A stretch of DNA of 7,570 nt, taken from positions 1 to 7,570 of the IMG/VR virus record IMGVR_UViG_2585427790_000004. The stretch is one strand, 5' to 3'. The translations under genes and the position numbers were made by a program. Positions within the stretch are counted from its first letter, which is position 1, and each line of letters starts with the position of its first letter. Origin of the DNA: a virus. Taxonomy: Duplodnaviria > Heunggongvirae > Uroviricota > Caudoviricetes. Shown here piece after piece: positions 1 to 7,570 of this stretch. The notes beneath the pieces are model-generated. The model made no database searches. It had not been told where the DNA came from and saw nothing but the letters and a program-made list of their open reading frames with translations.

Positions 1-93
1 GCACTGGCGCTCGGGCGTCGTGCGATTGGCGTTGAACTGGAGACCGGACGTTTTGAGCAGACAGTCAGGGAAGTTCAGGATTTAATCGTTTGA
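1..93 (+). CDS. 3' end of an ORF entering from upstream (5' partial); C-terminus resembles a beta-class DNA N6-adenine/N4-cytosine methyltransferase
   Basis: Frame 1 is open from position 1 to TGA at 91-93 and translates to ALALGRRAIGVELETGRFEQTVREVQDLIV*. The A-x-x-G-R-R-x-I-G-x-E pattern resembles the segment after the FxGxG AdoMet motif near the C-terminus of beta-class methyltransferases. Only 30 residues are visible, so the family call is tentative. Confidence 0.4.
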   Translation, partial: ALALGRRAIGVELETGRFEQTVREVQDLIV

Positions 94-104
94 AACGGAT
101 GATA

Positions 105-133
105 TTGAAGAATTAATTACGCGTCGTTATTAT
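105..133 (+). promoter_or_regulatory. sigma70-like promoter for the tRNA cluster
   Basis: TTGAAG at 105-110, a 17-bp spacer, then TATTAT at 128-133; the first tRNA begins at 143, about 9 nt downstream. Confidence 0.5.
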
Positions 134-142
134 GCGGCTCCC

Positions 143-218
143 GGCCCTTTAGCTCAGTGGTGAGAGCGAGCGACTCATAATCGCCAGGTCGCTGGTTCAA
201 ATCCAGCAAGGGCCACCA
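143..218 (+). tRNA. ileZ: tRNA with CAU anticodon, most likely tRNA-Ile2 (lysidine type) rather than tRNA-Met
   Basis: Cloverleaf read by hand: acceptor GGCCCTT (143-149) pairs with AAGGGCC (208-214), discriminator A, encoded CCA at 216-218; D stem GCTC/GAGC; anticodon loop CTCATAA; T loop TTCAAAT. Closely resembles E. coli ileX as I recall it. The symbol follows the 933W naming from memory. Confidence 0.85.
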
Positions 219-225
219 TCACATA

Positions 226-302
226 CCGCCATTAGCTCATCAGGATAGAGCGCCAGCCTTCGAAGCTGGTTGCGCGGGGTTCGAGTCCTCGATGGCGGTC
301 CA
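226..302 (+). tRNA. argN: tRNA-Arg (anticodon UCG, reads CGA/CGG)
   Basis: Acceptor CCGCCAT (226-232) pairs with ATGGCGG (292-298), discriminator T, encoded CCA at 300-302; D stem GCTC/GAGC; anticodon stem CCAGC/GCTGG with loop CTTCGAA (anticodon TCG at 260-262); T loop TTCGAGT. Unusual C1:G72 first pair. Starts 7 nt after the previous tRNA. Confidence 0.8.
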
Positions 303-315
303 TTATCTGTACCCT

Positions 316-392
316 GCGTTGTTAGCTCAGCCGGACAGAGCAATTGCCTTCTAAGCAATCGGTCACTGGTTCGAATCCAGTACAACGCGCCA
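316..392 (+). tRNA. argO: tRNA-Arg (anticodon UCU, reads AGA/AGG)
   Basis: Acceptor GCGTTGT (316-322) pairs with ACAACGC (382-388), discriminator G, CCA at 390-392; anticodon stem ATTGC/GCAAT with loop CTTCTAA (anticodon TCT at 350-352); T loop TTCGAAT. Resembles E. coli argU. Confidence 0.88.
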
Positions 393-406
393 CACTTATT
401 TTCCCT

Positions 407-432
407 GGCTCGCTTTTGCGGGCCTTTTTTTT
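407..432 (+). terminator. rho-independent terminator after the tRNA cluster
   Basis: Stem GGCTCGC (407-413) / GCGGGCC (418-424) with one G-U pair, loop TTTT, followed by a run of 8 T (425-432). Confidence 0.7.
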
Positions 433-627
433 AAATGTCTCACAATTCAGACGGTTGACTGTTGTCTGGTTGGCGGGGAGTTTGTTAAAAGAAACTGGCA
501 TGGTGAATCCCCCTGTGCGGAGGGGCAATCAGCGAGTAGGTATATGGGATAATCGCGGATTCAGGTGCTGGTACTGAATTCACCGGGAGGCACCCGGCAC
601 CATGCAATGGCACATAGCGCCACTCTC

Positions 628-662
628 CAGCCCCTCTCCGGAGGGGCTGTTTATATTGATTT
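628..662 (+). terminator. rho-independent terminator-like hairpin
   Basis: Perfect 9-bp stem CAGCCCCTC (628-636) / GAGGGGCTG (641-649), loop TCCG, followed by the T-rich tract TTTATATTGATTTT. It lies just before the convergent end of the minus-strand ORF at 684. Confidence 0.5.
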
Positions 663-683
663 TGTCAGATGTGAGTAAACTGC

Positions 684-1019
684 TTATGGACTTTGTTGTT
701 TTAGCCCATAAGGACATATTTGCAGAGTGCAACGGTTATTAAAGCATTCATTCAATACGTTATCTGTATTTGTAGGGCATTCCTGGCTGTTTTTGATTAA
801 ATTCCAGAATGTTTTATTGAATGGTACTACGTTGTAAATGGTTACAGGTAGCACTTTGTTATTGAGCATGATGCCTGTGTGAGTCAGTGTAAATATACTT
901 TCAGGAGGTAAGAAAGCATCCGATTGATACCAGATTATTAATTTTATTTTACTCCATATGACTGAAAAAGATATTCCGCATGATGGCTGGATAACTGTAT
1001 CAATCACAATCCACTTCAT
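684..1019 (-). CDS. hypothetical 111-aa protein in an AT-rich island, no family recognised
   Basis: Open frame of 111 codons in very AT-rich DNA, where stop codons are frequent. Good Shine-Dalgarno AAGGAA 6 nt upstream of the ATG (complement of 1017-1019). A candidate sigma70 promoter lies upstream on the minus strand (TTTACA / TATACT, complement of about 1060-1086). The protein ([22 protein letters not shown]...) matches nothing I know. Confidence 0.4.
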
Positions 1020-1279
1020 TTAGTTTCCTTGTTTATGCCTTGCTGGTGATGTTCTGAAAAGTATAAATGATATTTTTGATTGTAAACCATAGAGCAGAAT
1101 TATTTTTCTGATGTTGTTTATTGTTTATTTAAATGCAGGGTGGTTTATATCTCGTCTTGTAGTTTATCCATGCATATCTGCTTGATGATGAGGTTTTTAT
1201 TTAAGGTATGGTTTTGTGTTTTTTCTGTATTACATGTCAGGTATTTTAAAGAATCATTTTTCAGATGGTGGAAAGAACC

Positions 1280-3136
1280 ATGGCATTTAAACACTATGAT
1301 GTTGTCAGGGCGGCGTCGCCGTCAGATCTTGCGGAAAAGCTGACACATAAACTGAAAGAGGGCTGGCAGCCGTTTGGTAGTCCGGTGGCCATAACCCCTT
1401 ATACCCTGATGCAGGCGATTGCAGCAGAAGGTGATGTGGTGGTCAGTGGTGCAACTGAGCCGGATTGGTACTACGTCATCGTACTGGCCGGGCAGTCCAA
1501 TGCCATGGCTTACGGTGAAGGGCTTCCGCTGCCGGATTCATACGATGCGCCCCATCCGCGCATTAAGCAACTGGCCCGTCGTAACACAGTGACTCCCGGT
1601 GGTGAAGTATGCGTATTTAACGACATCATTCCTGCTGACCATTGTCTGCATGATGTTCAGGATATGAGTACGATTAACCATCCCCGGGCTGACCTGAGCA
1701 AAGGGCAGTACGGCTGTGTCGGACAGGGCTTACATATTGCCAAAAAACTGCTTCCGTATATCCCGAATAACGCGGGGATCCTGCTGGTACCATGCTGTCG
1801 TGGTGGTTCGGCATTCACCCAGGGCGCGGAGGGGACATTCAGTGCGGACACGGGGGCCAGCCAGGATTCGGCACGCTGGGGTGTGGGTAAACCGTTATAT
1901 CAGGACCTGATCGCACGCACCAAAGCGGCATTACAGAAGAACCCGAAAAATGTGTTGCTGGCGGTGTGCTGGATGCAGGGCGAATTTGACATGAGCGCTG
2001 CCACCTACGCACAGCAACCGGACCTGTTCACGGCCATGCTGAAGCAGTTCCGTACTGACCTTTCCGGATTTAACGCGCAGTGCCATGGCGGCAGTGCTGC
2101 AGTTGTACCGTGGATTTGTGGCGACACGACGTATTACTGGAAAAACACATACGGCACACAGTATGACTCCGTCTACGGCGCGTACAAAAACAGGGAGAGC
2201 GACAACGTTTTCTTTGTGCCGTTCATGACCGACGGTAACGGCAACAACACGCCCACCAACTTACCGGCAGAAGACCCGGATATTGCTGATGCAGGTTATT
2301 ACGGCGCGCAATCCCGTAGTAATGGTAATTGGGTATCGTCAAATCGTCCGACACATTTCAGTTCATGGGCGCGCAGGGGCATTATTTCGGATCGCCTGGC
2401 AACCGCTATTCTGAACGCAGTTGGTCGAACCAGCGCCTTCATCAGCGGTACCGCACCGGAGATTAAACCCTCGCCCGGCGGCGACACGCCATCGGGGCCG
2501 TCTGATGGTGACACATCCGTTCGTACAGTCTCCCTGCTGCCGACAGCCGGAGAGGCTGCTGCGCAGGGCTGGACCATCACCGGCGGCAGTGTTGCGCTGG
2601 AAGATGGTGTGTTTAAGGTTACCAAGCAGAGCAATAAAACCTGGTCCCTGATGCATCCGGTGGATGACGCAGTCTCCCTGCTGACACGGGGTGGCAGACT
2701 GAGCTGTAAGTTTCGACTGTCAGGCGCACTGATCAACAACCAGTTCGGTCTGGGAATTTATCTGTATACCGATGTAGCGTTACCTGACGTCGTGGCGATG
2801 ACCGGGACTGGTAACCCGTTCCTGATGTCGTTCTTCACCCAGACCACAGACGGCAAACTGAATCTGATGCATCACAGGAAAGCAGGAAACACAAAGTTGG
2901 GCGAGTTCGGGAATTACAGTAACGACTGGCAGACGCTGGAGCTGGTGTTCACCGCCGGCAGTGCCACGGTTACTCCGAAACTGAATGGAGTGGCTGGCCC
3001 GGCATTCCAGGTCATAAAAGACAGTCTGACACTGGGGCTGAATGCGCTGACGCTGACGGATATTACCAAAAATGCAGCGTATGGCGTTGAGATAGAAAGT
3101 CTGGTGCTGGAGATAAATGCACCGGCATCATCATAA
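1280..3136 (+). CDS. nanS-p: prophage sialate 9-O-acetylesterase (NanS-p-like, SASA/DUF303 family)
   Basis: Long ORF (1265..3136 in the ORF track). Contains the GQSN block (VIVLAGQSNAMAYGEG) typical of SGNH-type sialate O-acetylesterases, and sits between the tRNAs and the holin as nanS-p does in Stx phages. Start placed at ATG 1280 (MAFKHYDVV...) because GGTGGAAAG precedes it; the in-frame ATG at 1265 has no Shine-Dalgarno. Confidence 0.85.
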   Translation: MAFKHYDVVRAASPSDLAEKLTHKLKEGWQPFGSPVAITPYTLMQAIAAEGDVVVSGATEPDWYYVIVLAGQSNAMAYGEGLPLPDSYDAPHPRIKQLARRNTVTPGGEVCVFNDIIPADHCLHDVQDMSTINHPRADLSKGQYGCVGQGLHIAKKLLPYIPNNAGILLVPCCRGGSAFTQGAEGTFSADTGASQDSARWGVGKPLYQDLIARTKAALQKNPKNVLLAVCWMQGEFDMSAATYAQQPDLFTAMLKQFRTDLSGFNAQCHGGSAAVVPWICGDTTYYWKNTYGTQYDSVYGAYKNRESDNVFFVPFMTDGNGNNTPTNLPAEDPDIADAGYYGAQSRSNGNWVSSNRPTHFSSWARRGIISDRLATAILNAVGRTSAFISGTAPEIKPSPGGDTPSGPSDGDTSVRTVSLLPTAGEAAAQGWTITGGSVALEDGVFKVTKQSNKTWSLMHPVDDAVSLLTRGGRLSCKFRLSGALINNQFGLGIYLYTDVALPDVVAMTGTGNPFLMSFFTQTTDGKLNLMHHRKAGNTKLGEFGNYSNDWQTLELVFTAGSATVTPKLNGVAGPAFQVIKDSLTLGLNALTLTDITKNAAYGVEIESLVLEINAPASS

Positions 3137-3220
3137 AAAGTGAGCCAGTCAAATGGAAGGTATCGTTAAACTCACCGGTAGTGTCAGTGGGTCGTCTGAG
3201 ATGCCTGCATGAGTTATCAG

Positions 3221-3252
3221 AGCCATCAGTACTTAACTGGTGGCTTTTTTTA
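3221..3252 (+). terminator. rho-independent terminator between nanS-p and the holin
   Basis: Stem AGCCATCAG (3221-3229) / CTGGTGGCT (3237-3245) with one G-U pair, loop TACTTAA, followed by six T and TAT. Confidence 0.6.
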
Positions 3253-3286
3253 TTGTTGTCAGCTTCCGGATAACGGGAGACGGGGT

Positions 3287-3502
3287 ATGTACCAGATGGA
3301 AAAAATCACAACAGGTGTGTCATACACCACGTCAGCGGTGGGAACGGGCTACTGGTTCCTGCAGTTGCTGGACAGGGTTTCCCCGTCTCAGTGGGCGGCA
3401 ATAGGCGTGCTGGGGAGTCTGCTGTTTGGGTTGCTGACATATCTGACTAACCTGTATTTCAAAATCAGAGAGGACCGTCGTAAGGCGGCGCGGGGAGAGT
3501 AA
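3287..3502 (+). CDS. S: class II holin (phage 21 S-like, 71 aa)
   Basis: [71 protein letters not shown]: two transmembrane segments and a charged C-terminus, near-identical in layout to the S21 holin as recalled. GGGAGA Shine-Dalgarno 6 nt upstream. Met1 and Met4 give a dual-start motif. The track ORF from 3209 is an unsupported N-terminal extension. Confidence 0.85.
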
Positions 3503-3506
3503 AGCG

Positions 3507-3851
3507 ATGAAGAAAAAATACGAACTGGTTGTTAAAGGGATAAATAATTACCCGAATAAGATTACTGTTACTGTGGCACTGGAAATTGGTGGGTATCCGT
3601 CACTGTTGTTGCCAGATGTGGCGATTAGTCTTGACCGTACTGAAGATGCCACGCTGGAGTTTTACGAAGCTGAGGCGAAAAAGCAGGCGAAGCAGTTTTT
3701 CATGGATGTTGCTGCCGGGTTATGTGAAGGGGATGGTCCGTTGCCGGAAAAGCGCCCCGTAATTTTAGAGGCGCAGGATGTGTTGATAACCTACAGAGGA
3801 AAACTACCGGGAATAATTACTGGTTCTCTGAAGACTCCACCGCTGGCCTGA
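3507..3851 (+). CDS. 114-aa protein of unknown function, probably DUF1327 (YdfR-like)
   Basis: Begins 5 nt after the holin stop and lies between holin and endolysin, the position of ydfR in the Qin prophage as I recall. The family assignment is from memory of similar proteins, not a search. Confidence 0.65.
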   Translation: MKKKYELVVKGINNYPNKITVTVALEIGGYPSLLLPDVAISLDRTEDATLEFYEAEAKKQAKQFFMDVAAGLCEGDGPLPEKRPVILEAQDVLITYRGKLPGIITGSLKTPPLA

Positions 3852-3901
3852 AGACTTAACATATCCAGGGATTTGAAATCGATAAACCCTGATAAATATC
3901 C

Positions 3902-4435
3902 ATGAACACCAAAATCAAATACGGCCTGTCGGCTGCCGTTCTGGCGCTGATTGCCGCAGGTGCGCCTGCGCCTGAAATCCTCGACCAGTTTCTGGATGAA
4001 AAGGAAGGTAACCACACCACGGCATACCGTGATGGCGCGGGTATCTGGACCATCTGCCGCGGTGCCATCCTGGTGGATGGCAAACCTGTCGTTCCGGGCA
4101 TGAAGTTGTCGAAGGAAAAATGCGACCGGGTTAACGCCATTGAGCGTGATAAGGCGCTGGCATGGGTGGAGAAAAACATCAGAGTGCCATTGAGTGAACC
4201 CCAGAAAGCGGGGATCGCGTCATTCTGTCCGTACAACATTGGCCCCGGTAAGTGTTTTCCGTCGACGTTTTATAAACGAATTAATGCAGGTGATCGCAGG
4301 GGAGCGTGTGAGGCGATTCGCTGGTGGATTAAGGACGGTGGCAGAGACTGCCGTATTCGCTCAAATAACTGTTACGGTCAGGTATCCCGTCGTGACCAGG
4401 AGAGCGCGCTGGCGTGCTGGGGAATCGACAGATAA
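3902..4435 (+). CDS. R: SAR endolysin (phage lysozyme, GH24 / T4-lysozyme fold)
   Basis: N-terminal Gly/Ala-rich weakly hydrophobic segment (MNTKIKYGLSAAVLALIAAGA) typical of signal-anchor-release endolysins, followed by the catalytic E-x8-D-x5-T spacing (EGNHTTAYRDGAGIWT). 177 aa. Confidence 0.9.
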   Translation: MNTKIKYGLSAAVLALIAAGAPAPEILDQFLDEKEGNHTTAYRDGAGIWTICRGAILVDGKPVVPGMKLSKEKCDRVNAIERDKALAWVEKNIRVPLSEPQKAGIASFCPYNIGPGKCFPSTFYKRINAGDRRGACEAIRWWIKDGGRDCRIRSNNCYGQVSRRDQESALACWGIDR

Positions 4436-4525
4436 GCAGAATATTTTGCTAATCAATGACGTTGGCCAAGGCGGACGGATAACACGAAATCCTGCGAACT
4501 GGCAAAATGTAAGTGAATAAAAGTA

Positions 4526-4558
4526 AAAACCCCGTTTGTTGGCTGCAAGCGGGGTTTT
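4526..4558. terminator. bidirectional terminator-like hairpin in the R-Rz gap
   Basis: 9-bp stem AAAACCCCG (4526-4534) / CGGGGTTTT (4550-4558) around a 15-nt loop; T-rich sequence follows on both strands. The large loop makes strength uncertain. Confidence 0.35.
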
Positions 4559-4633
4559 GTGTTTCCTGACTCTGGAAAAGTCAAAGGAGAAAGTGTGTTT
4601 GATTTTAGCAAACTGATTCGGGAGATTCGAGTG

Positions 4634-4732
4634 ATGGCTGGAAAATTATCCACCTGGAAGTTCATTCTTATCTGGCTGGTGTTTGTGATTATGGCCTCCG
4701 GTTATTTCATCGGTCAGATACGCTGGTGGTGA
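4634..4732 (+). CDS. possible 32-aa single-pass membrane peptide (alternative GTG start at 4595 gives 45 aa)
   Basis: Not in the ORF track because it is too short. ATG 4634 to TGA 4730-4732 encodes MAGKLSTWKFILIWLVFVIMASGYFIGQIRWW with a hydrophobic core. GGGAGA lies 8 nt upstream of the ATG, and AGGAG lies 5 nt upstream of the GTG at 4595. Its stop is 1 nt from the Rz start (TGAAATG). Confidence 0.35.
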   Translation: MAGKLSTWKFILIWLVFVIMASGYFIGQIRWW

Positions 4733-4733
4733 A

Positions 4734-5201
4734 ATGAACCGCGTACTGTGCGTGGTCATCATTGCCCTGCTGGTGGCCTGTGGTGCGCTTAGTCTGGGGC
4801 TGAATCATTACCGTGATAACGCCATAACCTACAAAGAGCAGCGCGATAAAAAAGTCAGTGAGCTGGAGCAGGCAAATGCAACCATTACTGATATGCAGCA
4901 GCGCCAGCGTGATGTTGCTGCACTTGATGCCAGATACTCGAGGGAATTAGCCGATGCGAGAGCTGAAAATGAAACTCTGCGCGCTGACGTTGCCGCTGGT
5001 CGTAAGCGCCTGCGGATCAACGCCACCTGCCCCGGTACCGTGCGTGAAGCCCCCACCACCTCCGGCGTGGATAATGCAACCGGCCCCCGACTGGCAGACA
5101 CCGCTGAACGGGATTATTTCACTCTCAGAGAGCGGTTGATGCTGACGCAGAAGCAGCTGGAAGTGGCGCAGGAATATATCCGCACTCAGTGCCTGAAATA
5201 A
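4734..5201 (+). CDS. Rz: Rz inner-membrane spanin (i-spanin)
   Basis: N-terminal transmembrane segment (MNRVLCVVIIALLVACGALSL) followed by a charged, coiled-coil-like periplasmic domain; position after the endolysin; 155 aa. Confidence 0.9.
   Translation: MNRVLCVVIIALLVACGALSLGLNHYRDNAITYKEQRDKKVSELEQANATITDMQQRQRDVAALDARYSRELADARAENETLRADVAAGRKRLRINATCPGTVREAPTTSGVDNATGPRLADTAERDYFTLRERLMLTQKQLEVAQEYIRTQCLK
4954..5139 (+). CDS. Rz1: Rz1 outer-membrane lipoprotein spanin (o-spanin), embedded in Rz in the +1 frame
   Basis: MRELKMKLCALTLPLVVSACGST...: lipobox LVVSAC and a proline-rich mature region (CVKPPPPPAWIMQPAPDWQTPLNGII) very like lambda Rz1 as recalled; wholly inside Rz. Confidence 0.85.
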   Translation: MRELKMKLCALTLPLVVSACGSTPPAPVPCVKPPPPPAWIMQPAPDWQTPLNGIISLSESG

Positions 5202-5229
5202 GTTTTGCTGATGCGCGGTATTGTCGCCG

Positions 5230-5294
5230 TATCCCCGCATTAACAGAGACCGCAGCCCGACCGGGAGACTCCTCTGCGCGAGTGTGCGGGGATA
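5230..5294. repeat. long imperfect palindrome at the Rz / tail-fibre junction
   Basis: TATCCCCGCA (5230-5239) is the exact reverse complement of TGCGGGGATA (5285-5294); inside are nested pairs CAGAG/CTCTG and CCCG/CGGG. No T-run follows. Confidence 0.5.
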
Positions 5295-5295
5295 A

Positions 5296-6742
5296 TCAAA
5301 AACGATACACACCGGGGTTTCTGCAGCAAAAACCTCTGAAACAAATGCAAAGACTTCAGCAGATAATGCTGCTTCCTCTAAGGCGGCAGCCGCATCGTCA
5401 GCCAGTTCAGCGGCGTCATCGGCATCATCTGCGTCTGCTTCAAAAGATGAGGCGACCAGACAAGCGTCAGCAGCGAAAGGTAGTGCCACGACAGCAACAA
5501 TGAAAGCATCAGAGGCAGCTGGTAGTGTGACGGCGGCAGCTCAGAGCAAAAGTACGGCGGAATCCGCGGCAACGCGCGCCGAGACAGCAGCAAAACGGGC
5601 AGAGGATATTGCATCCGCCGTGGCGCTGGAGGATGCGAGCACGACGAAAAAGGGGATAGTACAGCTCAGCAGTGCGACCAACAGCACTTCCGAGTCACTG
5701 GCGGCAACGCCAAAAGCGGTTAAGGCGGTAATGGGTGAAACGAACAAGAAAGCGCCCTTAAATAGTCCTGCACTGACCGGAACGCCAACAACACCAACTG
5801 CGCGACAGGGAACGAATAATACCCAAATCGCAAGCACGGCTTATGTTATGGCTGCGATCGCTGCCCTCGTGGACTCGTCGCCTGACGCACTGAATACGCT
5901 GAACGAGCTGGCTGCGGCGTTGGGCAACGACCCGAATTTTGCGACCACCATGACTAACGCGCTTGCGGGTAAGCAACCGAAAGATGCCACCCTGACGGCG
6001 CTGGCCGGGCTTGCTACTGCGGCAGACAGGTTTCCGTATTTTACGGGGAATGATGTTGCCAGTCTGGCAACCCTGACAAAAGTTGGGCGGGATATTCTTG
6101 CGAAATCGACCGTTGCCGCCGTTATCGAATACCTCGGTTTACGAGAACTCGGCACAAGCGGGGAGAAAATACCGTTACTCAGTACAGCGAATACCTGGAC
6201 TAATCGACAAACATTCAGCGGTGGCCTTTCTGGTGAACTATCCGGCAATGCTTCTACAGCTGCAAAATTAAAAACTGCCAGGAAAATAAGCAATGTGGCT
6301 TTTGATGGTTCCTCCGATATCACATTAAAAGCAAGTCATGTTGGTGCGTTTGCCTTAGGGAAAACAGGAAGCACCGTTGCGAATGATAAAGCAGTTGGAT
6401 GGAACTGGAGTAGCGGAGCCTATAACGCAACTATTAGTGGTGCATCAACGTTAATTATTCATTTTTATATGGGAGAAGGAAGTTGTCCTGCAGTTCAGTT
6501 TCGGATTAATTATAAAAATGGCGGTATTTTTTATCGTTCAGCCCGTGATGGTTATGGTTTTGAAGCCGACTGGTCCGAATTTTACACCACCACCAGAAAA
6601 CCTTCAGCAGGAGATGTTGGTGCACTGCCGTTATCTGGTGGTCAACTGAATGGTGCACTGGGTATCGGAACATCCAGTGCTCTTGGCGGTAATTCGATTG
6701 TATTGGGTGATAATGACACGGGCTTTAAACAAAATGGCGATG
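5296..6742 (+). pseudogene. side tail fibre (Stf-like) gene fragment, missing its 5' end and cut at its 3' end by the IS
   Basis: The frame of track ORF 5500..6903 is open back to the TAA at 5293-5295 with no start codon before 5500, and already encodes Ala/Ser-rich fibre repeats (ETNAKTSADNAASSKAAAASS...). It continues with GIVQLSSATNSTSESLAATPKAVKAV and ...LGDNDTGFKQNGD, typical of lambdoid Stf and T4 gp37-type fibres. After GD the frame runs into IS sequence at 6743. Confidence 0.8.
6122..6147. other. gix/hix-like DNA-invertase crossover site inside the tail-fibre gene
   Basis: TTATCGAATACC TC GGTTTACGAGAA: two 12-bp inverted half-sites around a 2-bp core; its reverse complement matches the Mu gixL site as I recall it (TTCCTGTAAACCGAGGTTTTGGATAA) at 22 of 26 positions, with the central AAACCGAGGTTT identical. 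Confidence 0.5.
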
Positions 6743-7570
6743 TGAACCGCCCCGGGTTTCCTGGAGAGTGTTTTATCTGTGAACTCAGGCTGCCAGATCA
6801 TCGTTTCCGATGGAAGCATAATAAGCTTTTTCTGCTTCTGCCGGAGGAGTATGGCCCAGCCTTTCCAGCAATCGTCGATTGTTATACCAGTCCACCCACG
6901 TGAGTGTGGCCAGTTCCACTTCTGCACGGTTTTTCCAGCTCTTACGGTGTATTACCTCCGCTTTGTAAAGACCATTGATGCTCTCCGCCATCGCGTTGTC
7001 ATACGAGTCGCCTGTACTTCCTGTTGATGCCAGTAATCCGGCTTCCTTAAGCCGCTGTGTGTAGGCCAGCGATACATACTGAGAACCTTTATCACTGTGA
7101 TGGACCGTGCCGGACGGTCGACGGGCCCATAACGCCTGCTCCAGTGCATCCAGCACGAATGTCGTTTCCATGGACGATGAGACCCGCCACCCCACGATGT
7201 ATCCGGCAAACACATCAATGATGAACGCCACATAGACGAAGCCCCGCCATGTGCTGACGTAAGTAAAATCAGCCACCCACAGCTGGTCAGGTCGTTCTGC
7301 CACGAACTGACGGTTTACGCGGTCGCCTGCGACAACGGCTTTCCGGCTGATGGTCGTACGGACCTTTTTACCCCGGAGAACACCGGCAAGTCCCATAACC
7401 GCCATGAGACGTGCCACAGTGCATCTGGCCACTCTGATACCTTCCCGTAACAACTGACGCCAGACTTTACGCACACCGTATACCTTGTGATTTTCATCGT
7501 ATACGCGCTGTATCTCTTTCTTCAGCCAGTCATCGCGCTGCGCACGGGCACTGCGTTTATCCGGATGATG
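6743..7570 (-). mobile_element. IS3-family insertion sequence (IS629-like), 3' part; continues beyond the window
   Basis: The tail-fibre frame breaks at 6743, where a terminus beginning TGAACCGCCCCGGG starts (IS3-family ends are 5'-TG...CA-3'). The transposase OrfB stop lies about 40 bp inside that end. Confidence 0.8.
6785..7570 (-). CDS. IS3-family transposase OrfB (DDE integrase domain), N-terminus beyond the window
   Basis: Track ORF 6785..7474 plus an open in-frame extension to 7570 (...HHPDKRSARAQRDDWLKKEIQRVYDENHKVYGV RKVWRQLL...). DDE-type blocks are present: LWVADFTY, HHSDKGSQY, YDNAMAESINGLYKAE. Matches IS629/IS1203-type OrfB from memory. Confidence 0.9.
   Translation of the reverse strand, partial: HHPDKRSARAQRDDWLKKEIQRVYDENHKVYGVRKVWRQLLREGIRVARCTVARLMAVMGLAGVLRGKKVRTTISRKAVVAGDRVNRQFVAERPDQLWVADFTYVSTWRGFVYVAFIIDVFAGYIVGWRVSSSMETTFVLDALEQALWARRPSGTVHHSDKGSQYVSLAYTQRLKEAGLLASTGSTGDSYDNAMAESINGLYKAEVIHRKSWKNRAEVELATLTWVDWYNNRRLLERLGHTPPAEAEKAYYASIGNDDLAA

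Follow-up and report, generated by a model that had tools for sequence, protein, structure and literature searches.

The switching of tail-fibre C-termini by DNA invertases is long known, going back to Mu, P1 and e14, and wild-type enzymes of the Gin/Hin family need an enhancer in cis. Both the G segment of Mu (gixL/gixR, Gin) and the C segment of P1 (cixL/cixR, Cin) carry an in-frame 26-bp site, made up of two half-sites of 12 bp and a 2-bp core, at the boundary between the constant and the variable part of the fibre gene (Sc/Sv). The segment is arranged as Sv-U / U'-Sv', and the invertase gene follows just outside the partner site. For E. coli EC958, alternative-orientation PacBio contigs were reported for the prophages Phi1, Phi2 and Phi4, with about 50% of the Phi1 reads in each orientation, and the Phi4 invertase was described as 'severely truncated', hence inversion at this locus was taken to occur in trans (Forde 2014, PMC4134206).

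The DNA analyzed here is a stretch of 7570 nt (the window), in which the 26 bp at 6122-6147 had been proposed, in the original prediction, as a Gin/Pin/Hin-type inversion site inside a tail-fibre coding sequence. These 26 bp are very probably the constant-side site of a Gin/Pin-family fibre switch, belonging to a lambdoid prophage of the EC958 'Phi4'/JJ1886 type, and the switch is now without output.

A 26-bp crossover site in the fibre reading frame

The sequence at 6122-6147 on the plus strand is TTATCGAATACCTCGGTTTACGAGAA (26 bp), in which two 12-nt halves flank a central TC at 6134-6135. The left half, TTATCGAATACC, agrees with the reverse complement of the right half, GGTTTACGAGAA, at nine of the 12 positions, which bears out the form of two half-sites around a 2-bp core that had been read from the letters. 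The Mu and P1 reference sites were taken from annotated records, namely NC_000929 (Mu G-segment boundaries) and NC_005856 (P1 cixL and cixR), and the e14 pix and Salmonella hix sites were compared only through the consensus quoted in Forde 2014 (PMC4134206). The Mu 26-mer, TTATCCAAAACCTCGGTTTACAGGAA, is the same at both G-segment boundaries in inverted orientation (NC_000929), and the window site matches it at 22 of 26 positions, the very count given in the original prediction. The matches to the P1 sites (NC_005856) were 23/26 for cixR and 19/26 for cixL.

A search with the P1 cixR pattern (≤3 mismatches) found a single place in the window, 6122-6147, while none of 200 dinucleotide shuffles of the window matched the same pattern, so that a chance match of the 26-mer is excluded. 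No second site was found in the window; apart from this one, the best 26-mer of the two strands reaches 15/26, no more than chance would give. Within the fibre ORF the site is in frame, and the encoded peptide is ..AAVIEYLGLRELGTSGEK.., and its 26-mer is identical to Phi1_5prime, an active crossover site listed for E. coli EC958 (Forde 2014, PLoS One 9:e104400, PMC4134206). On these grounds, 6122-6147 is judged to be a genuine serine-invertase crossover site whose sequence has already been described. The Mu and P1 matches, the shuffles, the identity with Phi1_5prime and the repeat arm found in relatives led us to annotate it (plus strand) as a 26-bp Gin/Pin/Cin-type crossover site, TTATCGAATACC-TC-GGTTTACGAGAA, on the 5' (constant) side of an invertible segment.

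A degenerate form of the 26-nt site pattern was also scanned against 185,579 species representatives and returned zero loci, a result that is uninformative as the site is common in E. coli. Such a zero is hard to believe, though the representatives may be without the site.

The invertible cassette and its two orientations in relatives

Three relatives carry the cassette in an intact layout, namely WS3294A (L002, 99.7% identical), JJ1886 (L003, 98.6% identical) and a genome found through a look-up of the Rz protein (L016; GCA_014216555.1, CP050200.1), which is 100.000% identical to window 540-6742, the Rz/fibre junction included. Their gene order is fibre, tfa, inverted tfa', inverted Sv', a partner site (TTCCTGTAAACCGAGGTTTTAGATAA) and a Resolvase-N remnant, which is the layout of Mu (Sc / Sv U / U' Sv' / gin). 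The tfa genes are chaperones, and the inverted fibre C-terminal fragment is annotated as 'missing N-terminus' in WS3294A and JJ1886. In each relative's region, the top inverted repeat consists of a left arm, CCGCCGTTATCGAATACCTCGGTTTACGAGAA, which is the window's own sequence, and a right arm, TTCCTGTAAACCGAGGTTTTAGATAATGGCGG; the arms are 32 nt in length and 84% complementary, with 3053-3055 nt between them in L002, L003 and L016 (3055 nt in L016). In WS3294A and JJ1886 the right arm lies about 50 nt ahead of the recombinase remnant. The inverted partner that was to be sought in flanking sequence is therefore present in the relatives, and the repeat search extends the window site to a 32-nt arm at 6116-6147 on the plus strand, composed of CCGCCG and the site. 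Going by these relatives, the source genome of the window may carry the partner as well. When the relatives' segment was flipped in silico at the TC cores, the frame was kept and a 932-aa fibre reading ..VIEYLGLQETVNK.. was obtained. The fibre gene of the window is the orthologue of the fibre gene of the EC958 Phi4 and JJ1886 prophages.

Collinearity of the window with EC958, EC21Z-078 and P88 extends to 6142, and their silent inverted cassette is matched from 6116/6118. As collinearity ends at 6142 and the cassette match already starts at 6116/6118, the switch of partner falls inside the 26-mer. These breakpoints (6116-6142 against EC958, EC21Z-078/083 and P88) set the site at the constant/variable boundary of the fibre gene, as had been supposed by likeness to Mu, P1 and e14, and the same cassette match agrees with a variable part that runs from about 6135 onward. 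A comparison of EC958 with JJ1886 revealed two sequences that are collinear except for an inverted block of 3.1 kb, at each end of which the alignments overlap by 27 nt, on the sites. The sites of the JJ1886 type are TTATCGAATACC-TC-GGTTTACGAGAA and TTATCTAAAACC-TC-GGTTTACAGGAA, and those of EC958 Phi4 are TTATCGAATACC-TC-GGTTTACAGGAA and TTATCTAAAACC-TC-GGTTTACGAGAA; only the right half-sites are swapped, which is the outcome predicted by exchange at the core. The window 26-mer likewise combines the left half of Phi4_5prime with the right half of Phi4_3prime, as would result from a crossover at TC. The P1 record places the crossover between the two bases at the centre of each site, cixL and cixR (NC_005856). 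The register shared with P1, the half-site swap and the breakpoints at 6116-6142 all point to the central dinucleotide TC at 6134-6135 (plus strand) as the exact place where the strands would be exchanged.

Both arrangements are widespread in E. coli. A 700-nt junction in the flipped arrangement was covered to at least 80% by 242 complete E. coli genomes, in one contiguous piece with 100% coverage and at least 99.7% identity among the matches listed, and the window-type junction of equal length was found in 324 complete E. coli genomes. Within ST131 alone both states were observed, with JJ1886 and strains 2/0 and 4/0 in one state and EC958 and strains 4/1-1 and 4/4 in the other. The window is in the 'JJ1886' orientation, opposite to the EC958 reference, and EC21Z-078, which is 99.96% identical over window 1-5320, is likewise in the orientation opposite to that of the window. 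At the orthologous locus in relatives, then, the cassette occurs in both orientations with the breakpoints on the sites.

The WS3294A record (NZ_CP035819.1) contains the whole tail region twice, once at the record end (L009) and once at the record start (L002), with identical proteins and with the cassettes in opposite orientations. The duplicate is probably a circularisation overlap left untrimmed, derived from a culture of mixed orientation, an assembly artefact of the type that Forde et al. 2014 (PMC4134206) warned of. Because of this switch, differences between assemblies of related strains, or duplicated ends in them, can be legitimate, and orientation differences at the locus should not be taken as a phylogenetic signal.

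Remnants of the fibre gene, the cassette and the invertase

Positions 1-5320 of the window represent the region for late regulation and lysis in a lambdoid prophage, and several E. coli genomes match this stretch at 99.96-100% identity. It contains three tRNAs and the genes of an IraM-like protein, a SASA/DUF1737 esterase, a holin, YdfR, the lysozyme RrrQ and Rz. The tRNA genes at 143-392 were called by ARAGORN as Met(CAT), Arg(TCG) and Arg(TCT), the first of which is tRNA-Ile by RefSeq in relatives, and downstream of them lie the IraM-like anti-adapter gene at 684-1019 on the minus strand and the DUF1737/SASA esterase gene at 1280-3136. Next, at 5320-6133 on the plus strand, comes what remains of the constant part of a side tail-fibre gene of lambdoid type, recognized by the alignment to L002 and by a Phage_fiber_2 repeat (Pfam PF03406). 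Window 5319-6742 corresponds to L002 7001-8424 at 99.7% identity, within a 2826-nt CDS at 5937-8762; since the alignment begins at L002 7001 and the CDS at 5937, the first 1064 nt of the fibre gene are missing.

At 5319-5320, the sequence downstream of Rz runs directly into the interior of the fibre gene, and this junction was recognized as a deletion by split mapping in EC21Z-078, in which window 1-5320 and 5319-6142 map 4.5 kb apart (L005 11320 and 15847) with an overlap of 2 nt at the junction. The terminase, head and tail genes that separate Rz from the fibre gene in fuller relatives are deleted in the window, where no morphogenesis genes were found. The junction is common to the window and L016 (GCA_014216555.1) and absent among 5,426 complete E. 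coli genomes, and no complete E. coli genome covered at least 80% of the window. An origin of this deletion in the action of the invertase was rejected, since the junction is 800 nt from the site, has an overlap of 2 nt and shows no site-like sequence.

Of the variable receptor-binding cassette (Sv), the first 607 nt are retained at 6136-6742 on the plus strand, where the cassette is cut by an IS. It was recognized by the silent inverted cassettes of EC958 (99.2% identical) and EC21Z-083 (L012, 99.5%) and by a gp37_C match in Pfam, and is about 77-84% identical to the cassettes of P88, Mu Sv', P1 Sv' and P2-like gpH. Homology to all relatives stops at 6742, and the end of an IS3-family element occupies 6743-7570 on the minus strand, with the transposase orfB at 6785-7474 (minus strand) matched by Pfam rve and HTH_21. 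Sequences that match the IS at 100% carry the annotation IS3 family transposase, and those that match the IS end less well are assigned to the IS1203 family; by the annotation of similar copies, the element at 6743-7570 is IS1203/IS629-like, with one of its ends within the window. The junction at 6742/6743 is absent among the 5,426 complete E. coli genomes, L016 has no IS at this place, and the exact IS junction is absent from species-representative genome contigs and metagenome contigs. The open frame at 5500-6903 is a fibre fragment that continues into the IS, and no record of an ORF fusing fibre to IS was found.

Because the fibre gene is decapitated and its variable cassette interrupted by the IS, the switch in the window is without output, and the original prediction was right to put 'possibly once invertible' in the past tense. 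It was right too in placing the partner site and the invertase gene outside the window, which holds no second site and no recombinase gene. Its further suggestion, that the partner may have been displaced by the IS, need not hold. Without the IS, the partner would fall near window coordinate 9.2 kb and so outside the 7570 nt whatever the IS did; the window ends 1423 nt past the site, and the IS is not needed as the cause.

Neither the ORFs nor Pfam gave a serine invertase gene in the window, and at the orthologous loci the only trace is a 60-aa Resolvase-N remnant, annotated in WS3294A and JJ1886 as 'recombinase family protein' with a Pfam Resolvase match. The pin/gin-like gene that was to be looked for in the flanking genome is accordingly there as a truncated recombinase remnant in the relatives, but a full gene is absent at the orthologous loci. 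The missing invertase bears on the autonomy of the locus and leaves the identity of the site intact. In P88-like phages, an intact invertase lies beside a cassette that is homologous to the variable part of the window from 6118. The 180-nt remnant (L002 10963-11145; L003 10965-11144) shares about 96% identity with the 5' end of Mu gin, and its end in WS3294A and JJ1886 is a TGG-to-TGA change. In these two genomes it keeps a 72-nt stretch alignable to the cin enhancer of the P1 annotation, 70 of the 72 being the same as in Mu gin, and this retained stretch is a plausible reason why loci of the Phi4 type would still flip in trans.

In L016, the closest relative, the recombinase remnant is reduced to 34 nt and most of the enhancer-aligned stretch is gone, and this lineage may no longer invert at all. 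In the lineage of the window, the cassette is probably frozen in its present orientation. At L016 14550-14816, the remnant is followed by a 241-nt fragment of 16S rRNA (RF00177, model positions 101-347, 140.7 bits) and then by IS66; a 16S fragment at a prophage end is odd, and may stem from a real rearrangement or from faulty assembly. Upstream of window 540, in L016, IS66 and rve fragments replace the tRNA genes. Given these upstream and IS differences, the window and L016 are at least two IS-associated rearrangements apart, with the fibre deletion common to both.

The sequence of events that we propose for such loci runs as follows. In intact relatives, a serine invertase would pair the site with its inverted partner about 3.05 kb downstream, probably assisted by Fis bound to the enhancer in the 5' end of the invertase gene, and the strands would be exchanged at the central TC. 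The cassette flipped in this way would carry two alternative fibre C-termini and two assembly chaperones, and either C-terminus would thereby be fused in frame to the constant N-terminal part. In prophages of the Phi4/JJ1886 type, where the adjacent invertase is truncated, flipping would rely on the invertase of another prophage. In the window the site itself is intact, but the deletion (1064 nt of the fibre gene together with the morphogenesis genes) and the IS, 607 nt past the core, would have removed the output.

Alternative readings and comparison with known switches

The site might still recombine silently in the source genome, where, provided that the remaining cassette and the partner have survived past the IS, the invertase of another prophage would flip about 4.4 kb, IS included, with no phenotype. 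We regard this as unlikely, though several observations are in its favour: the 26-mer is the same as the documented active site Phi1_5prime, the partner is kept in the 100%-identical L016, both orientations are frequent, with EC21Z-078 (99.96% over 1-5320) in the opposite one, and inversion in trans with a truncated invertase is documented for this type of locus (Forde 2014, PMC4134206). What speaks against it is L016, whose 34 nt of recombinase remnant have lost most of the enhancer-equivalent region, and IS elements can also cause adjacent deletions. Wild-type members of the Gin/Hin family depend on a cis enhancer. Rather doubtful is the related idea that the orphaned site is still a live substrate for the invertases of co-resident prophages, either with its own partner or with identical 26-mers in other prophages, for example those of the Phi1/P88 type. 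If true, pairing with the 26-mers of other prophages would lead to large chromosomal inversions or deletions between prophages, while pairing with its own partner would flip a cassette that now carries an IS3 element.

The motif could also be read as the mere nucleotide encoding of a conserved fibre peptide, with no role as a DNA site, and this is highly improbable. It is true that the site is in frame, that it encodes VIEYLGLRE where P1 has VIQYLGLRE, and that P1 S has, on both sides of cixR, a peptide nearly identical to that of the window (..AVIQYLGLRELGTSGEKIPLLST.. in P1 S and ..AVIEYLGLRELGTSGEKIPLLST.. in the window). However, Mu S is unrelated upstream and has the peptide FIQNLGLQE, yet 22 of the 26 bases are kept; the outer half of the silent partner, which lies outside the expressed frames between the silent cassette and the recombinase gene, keeps the consensus; the homology breakpoints and the half-site swaps fall exactly on the site; and the P2-like phage L-413C, 84% identical to the variable part from 6207, has neither the motif (best 15/26) nor an invertase. 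L-413C gpH had been tried as a control that would carry the motif without an invertase, and failed in this role as gpH has no such motif. The original prediction had itself named this coding explanation, together with the absence of a second site or an invertase within a few kb, as what could overturn it, and the breakpoints, the half-site swaps and the long reads of Forde 2014 (PMC4134206) contradict it. Part of the conservation of the motif is nevertheless coding constraint, and both constraints, on the DNA site and on the encoded peptide, act on the sequence, as they do in Mu and P1.

That the locus still serves a viable phage in the source genome as a working host-range switch, as the intact site and the seemingly intact upstream lysis genes might suggest, is scarcely credible, as the fibre gene is without its first 1064 nt and its start codon, the terminase, head and tail genes are deleted, and an IS lies in the variable cassette.

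The reading of the locus as the remains of a Phi4/JJ1886-type switch makes the feature an ordinary relic in the fibre pseudogene of a defective prophage. Both the site sequence and this type of prophage locus, truncated invertase included, are already described in E. coli ST131, and there is little significance beyond correct annotation, for which 5320-6742 should be entered as a pseudogene remnant with an invertase crossover site.

Among the known systems, EC958 Phi4 is the orthologous locus, with the same constant part, two cassettes, a partner site and a truncated recombinase; the window differs from it in its opposite orientation, in the lack of the 5' 1064 nt and in the IS3-family insertion in the cassette. 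The P88-like (Xuanwuvirus) prophages have a constant part that is 92% identical up to 6142 and a silent cassette homologous from 6118, with the sites TTATCGAATACCTCGGTTTACAGGAA and TTATTTAAAACCTCGGTTTACGAGAA, but unlike the window they are complete P2-like phages with a full-length DNA invertase gene, and their cassette is only 77% identical. The window shares with the Mu G segment and the P1 C segment the in-frame 26-bp site at the Sc/Sv boundary, in the same peptide register as P1 S at cixR, and part of its cassette shares 79-80% identity with the Sv' of both phages, while the relatives share with these phages the arrangement of cassettes, partner site and recombinase gene. In contrast to Mu and P1, the host element here is a lambdoid prophage with a side tail fibre and not a myovirus, and the adjacent invertase in prophages of the Phi4/JJ1886 type is a pseudogene.
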